A stretch of 12,635 bases of DNA from Nitrospinota bacterium (GCA_030754595.1 JASLZZ010000089.1:1-12635), one strand, 5' to 3'; counted from the stretch's first letter, positions 248 through 8,861 are shown. Notes: generated from the letters alone by a model not told the origin. Numbers and translations are program-made.

Positions 248-1396
248 CTAGGATTTTCTCCGGAGGTTGATCCGCTTGTTCGAGAGCCCTTCTTTCGCGG
301 ATTCCTCTCCCTGCCGCCGGAATTGAACGAACTCGGCGACGATTGCAATTCCAATCTCGCCGGGTGAATCGGCGCCGATGTCGAGGCCAATCGGTGCATG
401 GACGCGGCTGATGATCTCGTCCATGTCGAAGCCCTTGTCTCGAAGGTGGCGGTAGGTGAGCAGGACCTTTCCCTTTGAACCAATCATCCCGATGTAGCGG
501 GCCGAGGTTTTGAGGGCCCACTCCAGGGCGACTTCGTCGTTGGCGTGGCCGCGGGTGATGATGGTGATGTAGTTCGATTCATCGACGGGAATCTCGTCGA
601 AAATCGCCGGATGCTCGCCGATATGGAACGACTCGGCCATCGGGAAGCGCTCTTTGTTCGCGAAGGTGGGTCTGTCCTCCACGACGGCGATCCGGAAGCC
701 GGCCATATGGGCGGCTTGGGCCACGCAATAGGAGACATGGCCGCCACCGAAGATGTAGACCAGCGGCTGAGCCGTGATTGGCTCGACGAATATCTCGGTC
801 GCCTCCCCGGGGTCCCGGCGCGGTTTGTCGGAGCCGGCGTCTTCTCCCCAGAAATGCATCAGCTGCGGCTGGCCCTGGCGCATGATCTGTGCGCTCTCGC
901 GCCAAACCTCGGCCGAGAAGGCGGGAATTTCGCCGAACGTATTTCCGTTCCGGGTCACCATTAATTTCTTTTTGGCGGCGGGGGCGGCTTGCCCGCTTCC
1001 GTCCTGAATCATGGTGGCTAGAACCGCGCTCTGCCCCCGGTTCCGGGTGCCGATAATTTCGGTGAGAAGATCCGGATCGTAGGCCTCGAAGGGCTCGATG
1101 AAGATTTCGACCGTTCCGCCGCAGATGTGGCCGCTGTCGCCTGCCTCGTCGGCGGTCAGATCGAAGGCGACTTTCTCCCCCGAGTCGCCGCTCATGACAT
1201 TCATGGCCGTTTCCCAGACTTCGGCCTCCAGGCAACCGCCGCCGATCGTCCCCATGGTGCTTCCGTCCTCGCGGACGAGCATCTTAGCGTCCCCGCTCAT
1301 GGGGGCGGACCCCTTCCTGGAGACGACGGTGGCGATGGCGCCCCGCTCTCCTTTTTCGATTCTCTCGGCCATTTCCTTAAAAACGTCCTTGCTCAT
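248..1396 (-). CDS. xdhC: XdhC/CoxI family molybdenum hydroxylase accessory (Moco insertion) protein, 382 aa
   Basis: N-terminal ATVVSRKGSAP...KMLV..DG...GTIGGGCLE, a CGG motif (GHICGG), a Rossmann-like IFGGGHVS segment, TRGHAND, YIGMIGS and the C-terminal HAPIGLDIGADSPGEIGIAIVAE. Confidence 0.92.
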   Translation of the reverse strand: MSKDVFKEMAERIEKGERGAIATVVSRKGSAPMSGDAKMLVREDGSTMGTIGGGCLEAEVWETAMNVMSGDSGEKVAFDLTADEAGDSGHICGGTVEIFIEPFEAYDPDLLTEIIGTRNRGQSAVLATMIQDGSGQAAPAAKKKLMVTRNGNTFGEIPAFSAEVWRESAQIMRQGQPQLMHFWGEDAGSDKPRRDPGEATEIFVEPITAQPLVYIFGGGHVSYCVAQAAHMAGFRIAVVEDRPTFANKERFPMAESFHIGEHPAIFDEIPVDESNYITIITRGHANDEVALEWALKTSARYIGMIGSKGKVLLTYRHLRDKGFDMDEIISRVHAPIGLDIGADSPGEIGIAIVAEFVQFRRQGEESAKEGLSNKRINLRRKS

Positions 1397-1469: not shown

Positions 1470-2285
1470 TTAAGGAGCCCGGTTCACCACTCTGAGGCCG
1501 GAGGGAAGGCATTCCGTGAAAAGAATTCCATCCGCCGGGCCGCCCGGGCTTAGCGTGGCTTTAGAAATAATATAACCGATTCGCTCAAGATTTTCCATCG
1601 AGTCTATTTTGTCGCATTTGTTCATGATGATGTACCTCCGGGCGCCGCCGGGGGCCCCCCGGAACAGCCCCTCGGGGTGCGCGGCGAGCCGGGCAACCGC
1701 GGCGGCGTCAATGGGCGCGCCAGCGGGAAGCCCGATCAACTCCGAGAGACGCCCGGGGCGGAAAACGTGGTCCTCATCGAGGGGCGAGCCCAGGGCGTCG
1801 AGGCCCACGACCCCGAGGACGATGTCCGTACCGGGCGGGATGACCGGCTCCTCGGGACCCGGTGCCTTGACAGGGAGGCCGCGCGAGCCATCCGCCTCGA
1901 CCAGGAGGGCGCCTTCGCTTCGGCGGAACTGTTCGATCTCCTCCGAGTCGAAACCCCTGAGCTTCATCTTGCGCTCATGGGGAGCGCCCGGAACGACGGT
2001 CTCGCCCACTCGGCGGCGGGCCAGCGTGACCGGCGCCGTCCAGGGTTGGCGGCCGGATATTCGGGCGGCAAGCCGCCCGGCCTCGCCGAGACAAAGATGG
2101 GTTTCCTCCGGAGGGGCGGGCGAGAAAATATGGGTTGTCGTCGAGAGGACGACCGGCCGCGCGCCGGCGGCGAAGCATTCCGCCCCGAGGGCGCGGAGAA
2201 GGCTGGTCTTTCCCCCGCCCCCCACGGCCGCGACCAACAGTCCGGGAGCCAGGCCAATCGCCCCGAATAGTTTTTCTTCGTTCAC
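1470..2285 (-). CDS. yqeC: Selenium-dependent hydroxylase accessory protein YqeC, 271 aa
   Basis: P-loop-like VGGGGKTSL, STTTHI, LVEADGSRGLPVKAP..EEPVIP, GVVGLDALG and NKCD. The GTG start overlaps the upstream TGA (GTGA). yqeB and xdhC are nearby. Confidence 0.9.
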   Translation of the reverse strand: MNEEKLFGAIGLAPGLLVAAVGGGGKTSLLRALGAECFAAGARPVVLSTTTHIFSPAPPEETHLCLGEAGRLAARISGRQPWTAPVTLARRRVGETVVPGAPHERKMKLRGFDSEEIEQFRRSEGALLVEADGSRGLPVKAPGPEEPVIPPGTDIVLGVVGLDALGSPLDEDHVFRPGRLSELIGLPAGAPIDAAAVARLAAHPEGLFRGAPGGARRYIIMNKCDKIDSMENLERIGYIISKATLSPGGPADGILFTECLPSGLRVVNRAP

Positions 2286-4054
2286 CAGGCCCGGGCTTCT
2301 TCGCCGGTCCCGAGCAGCTCGCGCCGGAGAATCTGAACGAGTTCCTCGGCCAACTGATCGAGATGCTTGACGACGATGTAGTTGGGATAGATTTGCTCGA
2401 CAAAGGGATCGACCACGCCGACGCCGACAATTCGGACGCCGAGTTTATCGAGGCGGTGGACCGTCTCCACTAAATGAGAGGCGTCGCCGTTGGGCTGGCC
2501 GTCCGAGGTGATGATGATGACCTTTTCGCTCTCCTCTCGGGCGATGAGGCGGCGGTAGGCGAACTGAAGGTGCTCCTCGTCCCAGTTGTTGAAGCGGGGG
2601 TAGATGTTCACGAGGCGATTCTTCACGCTCTGAAACGGATCGTCGAAAGCCTTGTAGATTCTGTGCTGGAGGGGCGAGTGGCGGATATGGCGGAACTTGA
2701 ACGCCGGCACATGGCCCAGCGAGGCGGCCATCGCCGCTTCCGAGCTCTCCGTCGAGTAGCCGATGACCTCGAAGGGAACTTCCACCCGGCCGAGCACTTC
2801 GGCGAAGAATACGGTCGCCTCCCGCGCGGCCAGGTACTTCGACTCGCGATTCATGCTGCCGCTCTCGTCCACGAGTAGGGTAAAGCAGATGTCGAGCCGA
2901 TCGGGCTCTTCTTTCCTCTGGAAGAGATGATATTTTCCGAGGCGCTGTTTCCAAAGCTTCGGGGCGTTGAGTTTCCCGGAGCGGAACGAGCCGCTATAGC
3001 GGGTGTACTGCCGCTCCTGGATGATTTGCATCAGTTTCCAGGCGAGGACCTTGATCTGGCTGCTCGCGCCGTCGACGATCGCCTGGTACTCCTCGGCCTT
3101 TCCTTCGGGCGGAATGAAAGTCGTCCCCTCGTCCGCGCGGCTCGCGGTGGGATGGACGTCCTTTTTATTTCCCTTCAACTCGAACCAGGGGCTCGCCCAG
3201 TGGCCGAGGGAGGCGAGCTCCTCCTCGCTGAGTTCGAGTTCCTCCTCGTCGAATCCGCCTTCCTCACCGGCGGGGTCGGTGGAGAAGAATTCGTCCACCT
3301 CATCGTCCGCGCCGTCGTTCTCCCGGCTCTCGGATTTTTGCGGCGCCTCCTCGGGGATGTCGGGGATGGGCATATCCTGTAGAGCCTGGGTGAGCATCTC
3401 CTCGGGCAGGCGCTCGCGGATGGCGGCGTAGAGATCCTCGGCGCACTCGAAAGCCTCGGCCGGACTCTCGGCCTGGCTGGCGCGAAGGGCGAACCGTCTG
3501 AAATCATCTAGAAAATCGAGGACGCCGGGTTCCATCCACGTCGTGTCGAAATTCGCGGGCGCCGGCGAGCGCGTTCCCGGTTCGATTCCCTGTCCTATCA
3601 GGTAGAGCCCCCACTGAATATGGAAGAAAAGAGAGAGCTCGCCCCGCGCGCTGAGGCGCTCGGCCTCGCCCAACGCGGGGCGGATGAATTCGATGAAGTT
3701 TTTCCGGGTCCCGGGCAGATCGGCGGCGAGGCGGTTCTCGCACCGGGCGTCCTCGAGGGCGTGCCAGATCTGAAAGAGGCCGGGGCGCTCCCGGCTGGCA
3801 AGGGCGGCCCGCCTCGCCCAGCGCAGGGAGCCCTCGATCCGGTGGGCGACCTCGATAAGCGTCATTCCCTTCTGGTAGCGGACGACATGCTCGTCGTCGA
3901 GACCCCCGCCGAGCCGCTCGAGGGTTCGTTCGGGGTCCTCGATGAGGATGGTGGATTTTTCCTGGTGCGCGATGTCGCCGTAGCGAAGGGAGAGGTCGTA
4001 GTCGTGCGAGGCGACTTGGGCCAGGACCTCGAGCCGGTTGCGGCGGCGCTCCAT
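2282..4054 (-). CDS. CobT/NorD/CbbO-like von Willebrand factor A domain protein (AAA+ adaptor), 590 aa
   Basis: N-terminal WHALEDARCE motif, a long acidic linker, the RSGKLN segment, MIDAS LLVDESGSM (DxSxS) and IITSDGQP. It lies directly downstream of a MoxR-type ATPase. Confidence 0.85.
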   Translation of the reverse strand: MERRRNRLEVLAQVASHDYDLSLRYGDIAHQEKSTILIEDPERTLERLGGGLDDEHVVRYQKGMTLIEVAHRIEGSLRWARRAALASRERPGLFQIWHALEDARCENRLAADLPGTRKNFIEFIRPALGEAERLSARGELSLFFHIQWGLYLIGQGIEPGTRSPAPANFDTTWMEPGVLDFLDDFRRFALRASQAESPAEAFECAEDLYAAIRERLPEEMLTQALQDMPIPDIPEEAPQKSESRENDGADDEVDEFFSTDPAGEEGGFDEEELELSEEELASLGHWASPWFELKGNKKDVHPTASRADEGTTFIPPEGKAEEYQAIVDGASSQIKVLAWKLMQIIQERQYTRYSGSFRSGKLNAPKLWKQRLGKYHLFQRKEEPDRLDICFTLLVDESGSMNRESKYLAAREATVFFAEVLGRVEVPFEVIGYSTESSEAAMAASLGHVPAFKFRHIRHSPLQHRIYKAFDDPFQSVKNRLVNIYPRFNNWDEEHLQFAYRRLIAREESEKVIIITSDGQPNGDASHLVETVHRLDKLGVRIVGVGVVDPFVEQIYPNYIVVKHLDQLAEELVQILRRELLGTGEEARAW

Positions 4055-4066
4055 CGGGGGGGCGCC

Positions 4067-4954
4067 CTAGAAGTGGTTGTCGAAGATGTCCTCGATCACC
4101 TTCGCGTCGAACGAGTTCACCTTGCTGAAGATGGTCGAGGCGGCGGCCTCCATCGGGTCGAACTGAGCCGCCATGCGCGCCCAGTCGATAAGCCGCCGGG
4201 TGCTGAACGTGGAATATATTTTTTCGTTCTTCATCGCCTCGCGCACGTCGTTCGCCACTCGGACCATCCGCTCGACGAGCGCCTGGTCGGTGTTCCCGCT
4301 CTGATGCATGGTCACCTCGACCTCGACCTCGAAGGGGAGGTATTCCATCTGCATGGTGACCGGGAAGCGGTCGAGGAGAGCCTCGTTGAGCGGTTTCGTC
4401 CCTCCGTAGCGCCGATTCTCGTGTGGGTTCATGCTGGCGAAGAGGCGGAAATTCGGATGGGGCCGGACGATTCTGCCGTCATACTCCGAGAGGACGATCA
4501 TCCGGTCGTCGTCGAGCAGGCTGTGGAGGCAAAAAGCGATCTCGGGGAGGCAGGCGTTGATCTCGTCGATGAGGAGCCAGTCGCCCGCCTCCATCGCCTC
4601 AATGAGGATCCCGTTCACCCAGTAGGTCCCTTGCTGGTTGATCATGAGCTTGCCGACGAACTCGTCTACCGTCGTCATGCCGTTGAGGTTGACCCGGCGG
4701 AACCCGTTGTTCGTCATGTGGGCCAAATGGCGCACCGTGAGCGTCTTGCCCACCCCGGTCTCGCCGACCAGGAGGACGGGGAGATTCTCGCTGACCGCCC
4801 AGGAAATCCGCTCCAGCGTGTCTCCGGCCGGAAGATAGAACTGGGGTCCGGGAACGAAGAGATTGTCATCGTTCTCCCGGTTGACTGGGATGGCGCTCCG
4901 CCCGATACGGTAGGCGCCTTTTTCTGTGGATTCGCTGACGATTTGGATGCTCAA
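4067..4954 (-). CDS. MoxR-clade AAA+ ATPase (CbbQ/NirQ/NorQ/CobS-like), 295 aa
   Basis: Walker A GETGVGKT, Walker B LLIDEIN, sensor-I ASMNP, YGGTKPLNEALLDRF with the arginine finger, and FSTRRL in a CbbQ-like C-terminal domain. The TTG start overlaps the yqeB stop (TTGA), with GGAG upstream. Confidence 0.9.
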   Translation of the reverse strand: MSIQIVSESTEKGAYRIGRSAIPVNRENDDNLFVPGPQFYLPAGDTLERISWAVSENLPVLLVGETGVGKTLTVRHLAHMTNNGFRRVNLNGMTTVDEFVGKLMINQQGTYWVNGILIEAMEAGDWLLIDEINACLPEIAFCLHSLLDDDRMIVLSEYDGRIVRPHPNFRLFASMNPHENRRYGGTKPLNEALLDRFPVTMQMEYLPFEVEVEVTMHQSGNTDQALVERMVRVANDVREAMKNEKIYSTFSTRRLIDWARMAAQFDPMEAAASTIFSKVNSFDAKVIEDIFDNHF

Positions 4955-5811
4955 TGCGTTTGCTCCGCGGTGGATTGTACTCCAAAAAGAAACATCATGA
5001 TGGCCTCGAGGACGCCGCCCCCGATGGCGCGCGATTTGTCGGAGATCGTGTGGCAGTGCGAGGGCTCGGCGCGCGGGTCCACATCGCCCACTTTGAAGCC
5101 CTCCGGGACATCGATGCCCTTCCTGAGGAGCCCTCTGAGCACCCCCTTGATCTCGGCCCGGAGTTCGGCGCCGCCGACCGTGGCCACGACCTCGTCCGCC
5201 TCGACCAGGTCGCCGATTGCCGCGCGCGGCTCGAAGACCCCGGCCGCCGGAGAGCGCAGGAGCCGTTCGGTCGTATATCCCCCGATAGGGCCCGGAATCC
5301 CGGTGTTGGGATCGGCCCCGCCCTCGATGATGACCCGGCCGATGTCGTGGCCCCGGGCGGTTTCGATGACGGCGTGGGAGTCCACCCCGGCGGTGAAGCC
5401 GGGTCCGATTCCGACGACGACTTCGGCCTGATCGATCCGGGTGCCGAGGTTGCGCTTGGCCATGATGGCGTCCACCAGCGCGGCCGGCCCGGCGAGCGCG
5501 ACGATCTCCGCCCCCGGATCGACGGCGACGGGAAGAACCCCATCACCCAGCAACGCTTTTGCCGAGGCGAGCATTTCCTCCGGCGATTTTCCTCCGGCCC
5601 GCGCCGCCACCACCCCTTCGACCTCGTGGCGGCCGGTGTAGAGGCATTCGGCGAAGGAGACCGTCCGCCGGACCATGGTCGGGTTTTCCGCCTCGGTGGC
5701 GATCACGGGAAATCCGCTCCGCCATAGGCGGTGGATGATCCCCGTAGCGAGGTCGCCGCCGCCCTTGACGATGACGAGGGTGTCGCTTAGGTTTCTCCCA
5801 GGGGCGTTCAT
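4951..5811 (-). CDS. yqeB: Selenium-dependent molybdenum hydroxylase system protein YqeB (EF2563 family), 286 aa
   Basis: IVKGGGDLATG, RRTVSFAE, DAIMAKRNLGT, GIGPGF, ETARGH, PNTGIPG, ERLLRSP, a lipoyl-like segment, KVGDVDPR and ISDKSRAIGGGVLEA. Confidence 0.92.
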   Translation of the reverse strand: MNAPGRNLSDTLVIVKGGGDLATGIIHRLWRSGFPVIATEAENPTMVRRTVSFAECLYTGRHEVEGVVAARAGGKSPEEMLASAKALLGDGVLPVAVDPGAEIVALAGPAALVDAIMAKRNLGTRIDQAEVVVGIGPGFTAGVDSHAVIETARGHDIGRVIIEGGADPNTGIPGPIGGYTTERLLRSPAAGVFEPRAAIGDLVEADEVVATVGGAELRAEIKGVLRGLLRKGIDVPEGFKVGDVDPRAEPSHCHTISDKSRAIGGGVLEAIMMFLFGVQSTAEQTH

Positions 5812-5817
5812 TGGCCG

Positions 5818-6213
5818 TTATTTATCCTCGATGAAGGCGACGGTGTCGATCTCGACGAGCCATTCGGGCCGGGCGAGACCACTGATGATTAAAAGCGTGC
5901 TCGCGGGGTAGGGCTTGCTCAATAGTCCGCTCCGCACTTTCATGTGTCCCGGAAAATCCCCCCGGTCGGTCAGGTAGACCGTGAGGCGGATGATGTCCTT
6001 CATCCCCCCGCCGGCGGCCTCGAGGGTCTCGCGGATGTTATCGAAGACCTTTTGGGTTTGTGCGCCGATGTCCCCCTCGCCGACCGTGTTGCCGCCGGTG
6101 TCCACCGCGACCATGCCCGCGAGCATGATCAGGCTCCCGCCCGAGACCTTGAAACCCGTGGAGTAGGCCGCGACGGGCTTGACCGTTTCGGGGACGATTT
6201 GCTCCTTGGGCAT
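5818..6213 (-). CDS. Rid (YjgF/YER057c/UK114) family protein, 131 aa
   Basis: AAYS, LAGMV, AQTQKVFDNI...LEAAG, LTVYL, YPAST and LVEIDTVA. AAGGAG RBS upstream. Confidence 0.88.
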   Translation of the reverse strand: MPKEQIVPETVKPVAAYSTGFKVSGGSLIMLAGMVAVDTGGNTVGEGDIGAQTQKVFDNIRETLEAAGGGMKDIIRLTVYLTDRGDFPGHMKVRSGLLSKPYPASTLLIISGLARPEWLVEIDTVAFIEDK

Positions 6214-6242: not shown

Positions 6243-6266
6243 AAAGCAAAACCGCCGGTGGGCGGC
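6243..6266 (-). terminator. Possible weak intrinsic terminator between the ACAD pair and the Rid gene
   Basis: Minus strand reads GCCGCC-CACC-GGCGGT followed by TTTGCTTT. The stem is short and the U tract is interrupted. Confidence 0.3.
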
Positions 6267-6333
6267 AGGAGGTGAATCTATCACGCCGGGGAAAGCGGAG
6301 GCAACGCGGGGGGGGGCGGCGTCCCGGTATCTG

Positions 6334-7506
6334 TTATGAGTCCAGCAGGTTGCGGGCGATGACGGAGCGCTGAATCTGGTTGGTTCCCTCGATGATCTGG
6401 AGCTGTTTGGCGTCGCGCATGAACCGCTCGAGCGGGTGATCCTTCATGTATCCGGCCCCGCCGAGAATCTGAACCCCGTCCAGGGCGGCCTTCATGGCGG
6501 CGTCCGAGGCGAAACACTTCGCCGCCGAGAAGTAGTGGACATCCTCCTTGCCGAAGCGGCCCGCGTCCACCAGCGCCGCTGCCCGGTAGACGAGCAGCCG
6601 CGCCGCCTCGATGTCCATGAACATGTCGGCGATCATGAACTGGACCGCCTGGTGCCGGGCGATGGGCGTCCCGAAGGCCTCGCGCTCCTTGGCGTAGGCC
6701 GAGGCGTAATCGAGGCAGCCCTGGGCGAGGCCCACCCCGCGCGCGCCGATCCCGGGCCGGGCCTGGTTGAATCCGAACATGGCGGTCCGGAAGCCCCGGT
6801 TCTCCTCGCCGATGATGTTTTCGGCCGGAATCCGGCAGTCGTCGAAAAAAAGCCCGCAGGTCGGTATTCCGCGCATCCCCATCTTGCGCTCGGGCGGTCC
6901 GATGGTGAGTCCGGGTGAGTCCCCGGGGACAATGAAAAGACTGATCCCCCGGACCCCTGCTCCGGGGTCGGTCTTCGCCGCGAAGACGATGAAATCGGCG
7001 TGGGGCGAACCCGTGCAAAAACTCTTTTGGCCGTTGATGACCCACTCGCCGCCCACGGGGGTGGCCCGCGTCCGCATGGCGGCGATGTCAGAGCCGGCGT
7101 GGGGCTCGGTGGTCGAGAACGACCCGCGTAACTCGCCCGAGGCGACGCCGGAGAGGAGTCTTTGCTTTTGTTCTCTACTGCCGGCGATTACGACCGGACG
7201 GGTGGCGAGCAGGAAGACGGAAAGAAACAGCGGGCTGTTCGAGCAGACCCGCGCGATCTCCTCGATGGCGATGCAGGCGCCGAGAACACCCATCCCCGCG
7301 CCGCCGTATTCCTCGGGCAAATAGATGCCGAGGAGGACCTGGTCTTTCATCAGCGCGAAAATGTCCTCGGGGTACTCTTCGGTCTCGTCGATATCCGCCG
7401 CGCGCGGGGCGATGTGGCGCTCGGCCAGCCCGCGCACGCTCTCCCTCAGCAGATGGTGCGCCCCGGTGAGCGCGAAGGGCATGGCGGCATCGACGGCGAG
7501 GGTCAT
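6334..7506 (-). CDS. Acyl-CoA dehydrogenase (paralog 2), 390 aa
   Basis: Start reassigned to ATG 7506 (MTLAVDAAMPF) because it aligns without gaps to paralog 1. Motifs: PEEYGGAG, TTEPHAGSD, INGQKSF, KMGMRG, REAFG, QILGGAGY, RDAK and IIEGTNQIQR (catalytic Glu position). Confidence 0.92.
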   Translation of the reverse strand: MTLAVDAAMPFALTGAHHLLRESVRGLAERHIAPRAADIDETEEYPEDIFALMKDQVLLGIYLPEEYGGAGMGVLGACIAIEEIARVCSNSPLFLSVFLLATRPVVIAGSREQKQRLLSGVASGELRGSFSTTEPHAGSDIAAMRTRATPVGGEWVINGQKSFCTGSPHADFIVFAAKTDPGAGVRGISLFIVPGDSPGLTIGPPERKMGMRGIPTCGLFFDDCRIPAENIIGEENRGFRTAMFGFNQARPGIGARGVGLAQGCLDYASAYAKEREAFGTPIARHQAVQFMIADMFMDIEAARLLVYRAAALVDAGRFGKEDVHYFSAAKCFASDAAMKAALDGVQILGGAGYMKDHPLERFMRDAKQLQIIEGTNQIQRSVIARNLLDS

Positions 7507-7926
7507 GGCGAAAATTTCCGGGTTTAGAGGTCGAGCAAATTCCGGGCGATGATCATGCGCTGAATCTGGCTGGTGCCCTCGACGATCTGAATCTGCTTGG
7601 CGTCGCGCATGAACCGCTCGAGCGGGTGATCTTTCATGTAGCCCGCCCCGCCGAGAATCTGAACGCCGTCCACGGCGGCCTTCATCGCCATGTCGGCGGC
7701 GAAGGTCTTGGCGGTGGAGAAATAGCGGGCGTTTTCCTTGCCAATCTTCCCGGCGTCCACCAGCGCCGCCGCCCGGTAGACGAGCAGCCGCGCCGCCTCG
7801 ATGTCCATGAACATGTCGGCGAGCATGAACTGGACCGCCTGGTGCTGGGAGATGGGCACCCCGAAGGCCTCGCGCTCCTTGGCGTAGGCCGAGGCGTAAT
7901 CGAGGCAGCCCTGGGCGAGGCCCACC
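6563..7926. repeat. Near-identical direct repeat shared by the ACAD paralogs (6563-6736 and 7753-7926)
   Basis: Hand alignment at offset 1190 gives 174 nt with 6 mismatches, including a 67-nt perfect run (6670-6736). Confidence 0.9.
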
Positions 7927-8696
7927 GCCCGCGCGCCGATGGCCGGGCGCATCTGATTGAAGCCGATCATGGCCGACCGGAAGCCCCGGTTCAGCTCGCC
8001 TATCTGGTTCTCCTTCGGGACGGCTGCGCTCTCGAAGAAAAGCTCGCAGGTGGCCACCCCGCGCATGCCCATCTTGCGCTCGTGGCGGCCGACGCTGAAG
8101 CCGGTCGTGTCGGTGGGAACGATGAAGTAGGTGATTCCCCGGGTGCCGGCCGAGGGATCCGTCTTGGCGGCCACGGTGATGAAATCGGCCTTGTCCGGGC
8201 CCGTGCAGTAACACTTCTGCCCGTTGATGACCCATTCCTCGCCCTCGAGGGAGGCGCGGGTGCGGATGTTCCCGGCGTCAGAGCCGGCGTGGGGCTCGGT
8301 GAGGGCGTAGGAGCCTTTGAGTTCTCCCCGGGCGAGGCCGGTCATGTAGTGTTTTTTCTGCTCCCCGGTGCCGCTCAGGTCGATCACCCGGCTCGAGAGC
8401 ATGTTGAGGACGATGAATATCGGGCTGTTCGAGCAGAAACGCGCGATCTCCTCGATGGCGATGCAGCCGCCCATGAATCCCATCCCCCCGCCCCCATACT
8501 CCTCGGGAAAAAAGATGCCGAGGAGGCCCTGGTCTTTCAAGAGCTGATAAATGTCCTCAGGGTACTCTTCACTCTCGTCGATCTCGGCGGCGCGCGGAGC
8601 GACGTGGCGCTCGGCCATCTCGCGCACCATCTTGCGGAGCATCTGCTGCGGCTCGGTGAGATCGAAGGGCAGGGGGGCATCGGTTCCTTGGTTCAT
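7524..8696 (-). CDS. Acyl-CoA dehydrogenase (paralog 1), 390 aa
   Basis: ATG 8696 is preferred to GTG 8708 because GGAGA precedes it and the length then equals paralog 2. Motifs: PEEYGGGG, LTEPHAGSD, INGQKCY, KMGMRG, QILGGAGY and IVEGTSQIQR. Confidence 0.92.
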   Translation of the reverse strand: MNQGTDAPLPFDLTEPQQMLRKMVREMAERHVAPRAAEIDESEEYPEDIYQLLKDQGLLGIFFPEEYGGGGMGFMGGCIAIEEIARFCSNSPIFIVLNMLSSRVIDLSGTGEQKKHYMTGLARGELKGSYALTEPHAGSDAGNIRTRASLEGEEWVINGQKCYCTGPDKADFITVAAKTDPSAGTRGITYFIVPTDTTGFSVGRHERKMGMRGVATCELFFESAAVPKENQIGELNRGFRSAMIGFNQMRPAIGARAVGLAQGCLDYASAYAKEREAFGVPISQHQAVQFMLADMFMDIEAARLLVYRAAALVDAGKIGKENARYFSTAKTFAADMAMKAAVDGVQILGGAGYMKDHPLERFMRDAKQIQIVEGTSQIQRMIIARNLLDL

Positions 8697-8861
8697 TTCA
8701 GTCTCCACGGGTGAATTTGAGTAGATAGGACATGGTCCGCCCGCGCCCGCCGGGCTGTCAATGCGTCCGAGAATTGGGCGGGGGTGGGAGCTTGCCGGAA
8801 AGGGAAGGGTGCAGTAGGCTCAGCTTGAACCCCGGACTCAATTTCACGTGAAGGAACCACC

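Follow-up and report, generated by a model that had tools for sequence, protein, structure and literature searches.

A CobS/CobT-like AAA+/VWA gene pair between yqeB and yqeC in Nitrospinota, a candidate maturation motor for molybdenum hydroxylases

Here, we describe two adjoining genes, for an AAA+ ATPase and a von Willebrand factor A (VWA) domain protein, that lie between yqeB and yqeC at positions 1470-5811 of a 12,635-nucleotide (nt) stretch of DNA from a Nitrospinota bacterium (GCA_030754595.1, JASLZZ010000089.1:1-12635; the whole stretch is referred to below as the window). Over their full length, the two proteins resemble the CobS motor and the CobT adaptor, and, on balance, we favor a reading of the pair as an ATP-driven maturation motor for xanthine-oxidase-family molybdenum hydroxylases, reused from tetrapyrrole chelation. 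This reading draws on gene content, family assignments, intact ATPase and MIDAS (metal-ion-dependent adhesion site) motifs, two conserved genomic contexts, and the loss of the pair together with its candidate client family. In particular, the context of a sister clade and the co-loss within the phylum link the pair to xanthine-oxidase-family enzymes independently of the operon in the window. From these observations we infer the client, the step, and the element of the pair's action, including any specificity for selenium. The genes of the operon and one flanking site are the following.

5818-6213, minus strand: ridA, RidA/YjgF family (PF01042, 81.9 bits), probable first gene of the unit
4951-5811, minus strand: yqeB, marker of selenium-dependent molybdenum cofactor maturation (TIGR03309, 345.4 bits, cut-off 220)
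4067-4954, minus strand: AAA+ gene, CobS-like MoxR-class ATPase, the motor (AAA_5, 98.3 bits; CbbQ_C, 41.2 bits)
2282-4054, minus strand: VWA gene, CobT-like adaptor (CobT_C, 64.5 bits)
1470-2285, minus strand: yqeC, P-loop protein belonging to the selenium cofactor trait (TIGR03172, 173.3 bits, cut-off 73)
248-1396, minus strand: xdhC, insertion chaperone that binds the molybdenum cofactor (Moco) (XdhC_C, 128.3 bits; XdhC_CoxI, 83.2 bits)
6251-6268, minus strand: terminator-like hairpin between an acyl-CoA dehydrogenase gene and ridA, a pattern match only and a possible upstream boundary

The order along the minus strand is ridA, yqeB, AAA+, VWA, yqeC, xdhC. The last five genes stand as they had been read in the first-pass annotation, which was made from the sequence alone, and so do their junctions: TTGA at 4951-4954 is common to the TGA stop of yqeB and the TTG start of the AAA+ gene, GTGA at 2282-2285 is common to the TGA stop of the VWA gene and the GTG start of yqeC (4-nt overlaps in both cases), and 12 nt separate the TAG stop of the AAA+ gene from the ATG start of the VWA gene. 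Because ridA ends 6 nt before the ATG of yqeB, it is probably included in a unit of six genes. Profile scans of the window proteins also bore out the earlier remark that the window contains no nor, cbb, or cobN gene.

The AAA+ protein combines an AAA_5 core and a CbbQ_C lid with the Walker motifs A (GETGVGKT) and B (D130-E131), both invariant in 16 sequences of the family, and, with its adjoining MIDAS-bearing VWA partner, has the features of the MoxR-class remodellers of the CbbQ/GvpN/NorQ group. Its best bacterial relatives of solved structure are CobS (96.5 bits), CbbQ (88 bits), and NorQ (81 bits). The AlphaFold2 model of the VWA protein (mean predicted local distance difference test score of 75.8) comprises a helical N-domain (residues 1-230), an acidic linker that is disordered (234-297), one long helix (320-349), and the VWA domain (389-581), and thus has the N-domain, acidic linker, and MIDAS-bearing VWA domain of the CobT architecture; the MIDAS residues D396, S398, S400, T435, and D518 show no variation across 15 sequences. 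A profile of 15 members of this VWA family aligned with the solved CobT (9uka) over positions 29-570, N-terminal domain included, with an e-value of 1.7e-32, and WHALEDAR.EN, the conserved motif of the N-terminal domain, aligns with the corresponding CobT helix. In a Foldseek search, the predicted VWA domain was nearest to the NorD VWA domain (9qhd_G, 9qh6_G) and to midasin MIDAS domains; because no CobT chain was listed among these matches, the likeness to CobT is drawn from sequence profiles.

On motifs, the two proteins had previously been called NorQ/CobS-like and NorD/CobT-like as opposed to CoxD/CoxE-like. We reached the same assignment, given that CobS and CobT are the best relatives of solved structure and that the VWA protein scores 17.8 bits against VWA_CoxE (PF05762), below the cut-off of 26.4. 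Membership in the CoxD/CoxE group is ruled out by this score, and a CoxE-type gene lies elsewhere in the genome. Only seven of 1.84 billion representatives align with the VWA family end to end at an e-value of 1.6e-86 or lower, and further matches are fragments or cover the VWA half alone. Among 22 more distant matches that were scanned, 21 fit only CobT, far below its cut-off, and one (P0132) fits no family. A quick maximum-likelihood tree of 45 rows (the window protein, the proteins of 19 of the 95 loci collected, 12 representatives, and 13 CobT-like outgroups) set the family apart from the outgroups with a Shimodaira-Hasegawa-like approximate likelihood ratio test (SH-aLRT) support of 99. 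Within the family, one clade holds all loci with the yqeB context (support of 98) and another holds all loci in which the pair stands next to hydroxylase genes (support of 85).

The likeness to CobS and CobT raises the question of whether the pair is a genuine cobaltochelatase motor that serves the CobN of its own genome, and we consider this very improbable. CobS and CobT are indeed the closest solved relatives, homologs go by the name "cobaltochelatase CobS" in some sources, and the genome, which is 96.9% complete, contains one cobN and no other CobT_C gene. However, the AAA+ protein scores 91.9 bits against the CobS equivalog TIGR01650 (cut-off 558.55) and the VWA protein scores 54.4 bits against the CobT equivalog TIGR01651 (cut-off 759.05), far under the values that would mark genuine CobS and CobT, which rules out this identity. 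Dedication of the pair to CobN is not seen either, given that the single cobN lies on another contig (C39), in a cobalamin cluster, where a fused ChlI/ChlD-type (Mg_chelatase/VWA) gene overlaps its end. Furthermore, the family is separated from the CobT-like representatives in the quick tree, and both of its conserved contexts consist of molybdenum-enzyme genes. A grouping with true CobS/CobT beside cobN, which the first-pass annotation had named as grounds for abandoning its proposal, is therefore not the case.

All 24 loci from species genomes are of the Nitrospinota type, and the five-gene order yqeB-AAA+-VWA-yqeC-xdhC is present in 21 of these, the other three being cut by contig ends; because the order recurs in this way, the arrangement is not due to chance. 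Among 16 close metagenome loci, eight contain all five genes, seven are truncated at contig ends and agree with the order as far as they go, and one (L052) retains yqeB-AAA-VWA, followed by unrelated genes in place of yqeC and xdhC. The 4-nt overlap of yqeB with the AAA+ gene was seen again in relatives. Most of the Nitrospinota loci have a ridA homolog immediately before yqeB; it is absent in L019, L022, L041, L043, L046, and L049. In L052 (7627-14420), an ornithine cyclodeaminase-like gene and a gene for a molybdoenzyme of the dimethyl sulfoxide reductase family come after yqeB-AAA-VWA, and further on lies a xanthine-oxidase-family gene that includes a fused 2Fe-2S domain and is apparently split over two frames. 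In a complete-chromosome metagenome-assembled genome (L024, 8001-9769), the VWA gene matches in two frames, that is, contains a frameshift or an assembly error.

In a survey of 51 genomes from the phylum, 48 had the VWA family, 49 had yqeB, and 47 had selD. Of the three genomes without the VWA gene, one reaches only 67% completeness; the other two, both 95% complete and of one genus, lack the VWA gene, yqeB, and every PF02738 large subunit, yet contain selD. Linkage of the closest homologs to yqeB, yqeC, xdhC, and selD, for which a survey had been proposed, was recovered in part: yqeB, yqeC, and xdhC accompany the pair in Nitrospinota (21 of 24 loci), yqeB and yqeC are missing within 7 kb of the pair in the sister-clade loci described below, and selD was not found within the 7-8 kilobase (kb) flanks of any of the 95 loci. 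The occurrence of homologs in genomes devoid of selD had been given as a reason to doubt a role in selenium loading; selD is present both in the genome to which the window belongs and, as the counts above indicate, in 47 of the 51 genomes surveyed from the phylum.

The second context comes from a sister clade of 41 metagenome loci, with proteins that are about 35% (VWA) and about 65% (AAA+) identical to those of the window; the handful of homologs that carry a name are assigned to Chloroflexota or Anaerolineales by their labels. In 23 of the 23 loci with at least 1200 nt of upstream sequence, the AAA+ gene directly follows the gene of a MoCoBD_2 subunit (the C-terminal molybdopterin subunit), and all 15 loci with at least 6000 nt upstream have the order flavin adenine dinucleotide (FAD) subunit, 2Fe-2S subunit, N-terminal molybdopterin subunit, C-terminal molybdopterin subunit, AAA+, VWA. 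Where the sequence extends far enough downstream (15 loci), an XdhC gene follows at 6-8 kb in 10. End to end, the N-terminal molybdopterin subunit can be aligned with the large subunit of Eubacterium barkeri nicotinate dehydrogenase (3hrd_A) at 246 bits, the next match scoring 164. In line with the literature on selenium, we take this nicotinate dehydrogenase (3hrd) to be a structurally characterised Mo=Se enzyme. The sister-clade hydroxylase shares with nicotinate dehydrogenase the split into four subunits, NdhF/S/L/M, outlined in PMC10331938. In one of these loci (L055), the flanks (105-2196, 8548-14638) contain genes for metallo-beta-lactamase-fold, 3-hydroxyisobutyrate-dehydrogenase-like, aldehyde dehydrogenase, 2-hydroxyacid dehydrogenase, TIM-barrel, and transketolase-like proteins. 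Judged by its gene families, the neighborhood of the hydroxylase looks like a catabolic pathway for a substrate that is possibly an N-heterocyclic compound.

The two contexts also bear on the suggestion that the pair acts on another client altogether and merely inherited its place among molybdenum-enzyme genes as synteny, with no functional link, which we regard as improbable. The synteny in Nitrospinota does extend to unrelated upstream genes, no client gene stands beside the operon, and a co-fold of VWA residues 300-590 with YqeB and XdhC gave a score of 0.00, from which nothing usable came and which we used neither for nor against binding. Against this, the contexts conserved in the two clades are different and each involves xanthine-oxidase-family genes, the pair was lost along with yqeB and all large subunits, and start and stop codons overlap on both sides of the pair.

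The genome that contains the window has the components of the selenium-dependent molybdenum hydroxylase trait: yqeB, present as a single copy, and yqeC, both above their cut-offs, together with selD and 11 PF02738 large-subunit matches. The selD gene (345 bits, contig C16:24543-25505) contains a single TGA in frame, pointing to a SelD with selenocysteine; an in-frame TGA is likewise found in nearly all selD matches across the 51 Nitrospinota genomes. The xdhC gene of the operon scores 312 bits against NF045664, below the cut-off of 350, and is the only XdhC-family gene of the genome, with both PF02625 matches falling in it. That a single xdhC stands beside 11 large subunits in the genome suggests a general role. 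The motif HC.TISDK close to the C-terminus of YqeB (residues 252-259) includes H252 and C253, both invariant in 14 orthologs, and, on conservation, Cys253 is a candidate selenium- or sulfur-carrying cysteine. The yqeC product carries a GGGGKT P-loop and is weakly similar to MobB (e-value of 0.006).

A cluster at the end of contig C136 (7001-10874) of the same genome encodes coxM-like and coxS-like subunits, an AAA+ protein, and a CoxE-type VWA protein (VWA_CoxE, 202 bits); no large-subunit gene was found on this contig. Taken with the operon, this cluster means that the genome has two different AAA+/VWA systems adjoining molybdenum-hydroxylase genes.

In Escherichia coli K-12 (3012614-3015057), yqeC lies directly beside yqeB, with mocA divergent, and the protein YqeB has an XdhC module (residues 12-252) fused to a YqeB module (271-526), which ties yqeB to XdhC-type handling of Moco. 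This fusion and the precedent of CoxD are the reasons why we read the pair as a motor and adaptor acting on an apo-hydroxylase.

If the solved complexes of CobST and NorQD are a guide, the AAA+ protein would form a hexameric ring onto which the helical N-domain of the VWA protein docks, with the finger of the VWA domain entering the pore, so that ATP hydrolysis would move the MIDAS face that holds the client. The place of CobN would be taken by a folded apo-hydroxylase, or by its complex with XdhC-bound Moco. The motor could then open the buried molybdenum site, and the cofactor, prepared by XdhC, YqeB, and YqeC and carrying a labile terminal chalcogenide, would be installed or completed there. 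In the Nitrospinota lineage, this chalcogenide would probably be selenium derived from the selenophosphate made by SelD.

A more specific form of this proposal, which we put forward only tentatively, is that the pair might provide the third selenium trait's missing energy-driven step, opening the apo-hydroxylase such that selenium processed by YqeB and YqeC on XdhC-held Moco becomes the Mo=Se ligand. The first-pass annotation had suggested that the pair opens a xanthine-oxidase-family enzyme for the installation of selenium or selenium-bearing Moco. The link to this enzyme family has since gained from the sister clade and the co-loss; selenium insertion stays conjectural, with yqeB and yqeC not lying within 7 kb in the sister-clade loci and no such pair beside the yqeC and yqeB of E. 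coli.

It is possible, if doubtful, that the pair matures xanthine-oxidase-family enzymes at a step that does not involve selenium, such as Moco insertion, sulfuration, subunit assembly, or the insertion of another metal, with yqeB and yqeC being mere fellows in the operon. The sister-clade loci, which have the enzyme and XdhC but neither yqeB nor yqeC within 7 kb, fit such a step, as does the position of xdhC as the sole copy for 11 large subunits; in addition, CoxD works in sulfuration and CoxE and CoxF in copper insertion, as outlined in PMC4240915. It is less easily reconciled with the conserved stop/start overlaps at the yqeB/AAA+ and VWA/yqeC junctions, with the retention of yqeB-AAA-VWA in L052 even without yqeC and xdhC, and with the sister-clade enzyme being closest to the selenium-dependent nicotinate dehydrogenase.

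Several observations weigh against a maturation motor for molybdenum hydroxylases, and against its selenium-specific form in particular. The case is a genomic one throughout, and no hydroxylase structural gene was found beside the operon. Neither yqeB nor yqeC occurs within 7 kb in any of the 41 sister-clade loci (0/41). The AAA+/VWA pair was not found beside the adjoining yqeC and yqeB of E. coli K-12, and the selenium trait can hence generally do without it. The canonical CoxD/CoxE-type pair means that a maturation motor is already present in the genome for at least one enzyme. The co-loss of the pair, yqeB, and the hydroxylases is a single event in one genus, and the order in Nitrospinota is partly plain synteny, because the acyl-CoA dehydrogenase genes upstream are conserved as well. 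Finally, the papers on the trait that were searched are silent on such a pair: PMC2276186 does not mention AAA, VWA, von Willebrand, CobS, CobT, or MoxR, and text searches of PMC5322559 and PMC11448449 returned no mention of it.

The remaining genes of the window encode two acyl-CoA dehydrogenases, an amidohydrolase, a 3-deoxy-D-arabino-heptulosonate 7-phosphate (DAHP) synthase, and a protein of the metalloenzyme family. The two acyl-CoA dehydrogenase genes stand in tandem at 6334-8708. A 633-amino-acid mechanical open reading frame at 6334-8235 overlaps the second of these, and its true start is probably internal because its Pfam domains begin only at residue 259. A promoter and terminator scan of the region gave site counts no higher than those in shuffled sequences (for terminator-like sites, 7 vs a shuffle mean of 6.1). 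Six short contigs with at least 95% identity, from two metatranscriptome runs of two studies, touch portions of xdhC, of the VWA gene, of the AAA-VWA junction (3995-4187), of yqeB, and of ridA. As DNA carry-over is possible, these RNA-library contigs are at most a weak hint of expression and are silent on co-transcription; no meaning attaches to the stretches that they leave uncovered.

The maturation of molybdenum hydroxylases by AAA+/VWA proteins is already known from CoxD/CoxE; the involvement of a CobS/CobT-type pair, tied to yqeB and yqeC, appears to be undescribed. In the main texts of literature mostly outside subscription journals, no paper linking an AAA+/VWA pair to YqeB/YqeC was found; in the same body of literature, we found no paper joining Nitrospina, xanthine dehydrogenase, and selenium, and, among the papers listed, none joining a selenium-dependent molybdenum hydroxylase with AAA or VWA. 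Recent genetic work shows SelD and YqeB to be required for labile selenium in hydroxylases and offers no mechanism (PMC11448449; bioRxiv 10.1101/2025.04.24.650524). For the route by which labile, non-selenocysteine selenium reaches a buried molybdenum site, the pair wedged between yqeB and yqeC offers concrete, testable parts. It would also represent reuse of the CobS/CobT motor module outside tetrapyrrole chemistry, and its homologs are commonly mislabelled "cobaltochelatase CobS" in databases. Nitrospinota are, moreover, flagged as unexpected carriers of the selenium cofactor trait. If the selenium-dependent reading is true, aerobic marine nitrite oxidisers would operate a sizeable complement of selenium-dependent molybdenum hydroxylases (this genome has 11 large subunits), a trait so far known mainly from anaerobic fermenters of purines and nicotinate.

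Among known systems, NorQ/NorD and CbbQ/CbbO resemble the pair in the combination of AAA_5 and CbbQ_C, in a predicted VWA domain nearest to that of NorD, and in the use of a motor with a MIDAS adaptor on a folded client. They differ in that the window contains no nor or cbb genes, the AAA+ protein scores higher with CobS (96.5 bits) than with CbbQ (88) or NorQ (81), and the N-domain of the VWA protein is CobT-like.

The SelD/YqeB/YqeC set (Haft and Self 2008, PMC2276186; Johnstone and Self 2024, PMC11448449) is matched by yqeB and yqeC of the window, which exceed their cut-offs, and by selD and 11 candidate clients in the genome. In contrast to the window operon, the described systems have no AAA+/VWA pair, the YqeB of E. 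coli is fused to XdhC, and the window comes from a marine nitrite oxidiser rather than from an anaerobe that ferments purines or nicotinate. As E. coli demonstrates, the pair is not a regular component of this trait; in Nitrospinota, it travels with yqeB.

Structures of CobNST (9ujv, 9uka) reported in bioRxiv 10.64898/2026.10.09.757910 place the N-domain of CobT on CobS, with the VWA finger entering the ring. CobS and CobT are the closest solved relatives of both window proteins, their genes adjoin, and the ATPase motifs are intact; the VWA protein shares the three-part plan of a helical N-domain, a long acidic linker, and a VWA domain with MIDAS that is described in the same source. Unlike CobS/CobT, however, the window pair falls below the equivalog cut-offs, has no CobN partner, and resides in a molybdenum-enzyme rather than a cobalamin context.

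The nearest functional parallel is offered by CoxD/CoxE/CoxF of Oligotropha carboxidovorans, where, as outlined in PMC4240915, AAA+, VWA, and XdhC-like proteins are encoded together for a xanthine-oxidase-family enzyme and finish its molybdenum site, including the ATP-dependent installation of a terminal chalcogenide; CoxD is the AAA+ protein needed for MgATP-dependent sulfuration of molybdenum in folded CO dehydrogenase. The pair described here is likewise encoded with xanthine-oxidase-family and XdhC-like genes, namely the xdhC of the operon and the hydroxylase genes that precede it in all 23 informative sister-clade loci. It belongs to another branch of both protein families, with a CobS-like AAA+ protein that has a CbbQ_C lid, and its operon adds yqeB and yqeC, whereas the canonical pair is encoded separately in the same genome.

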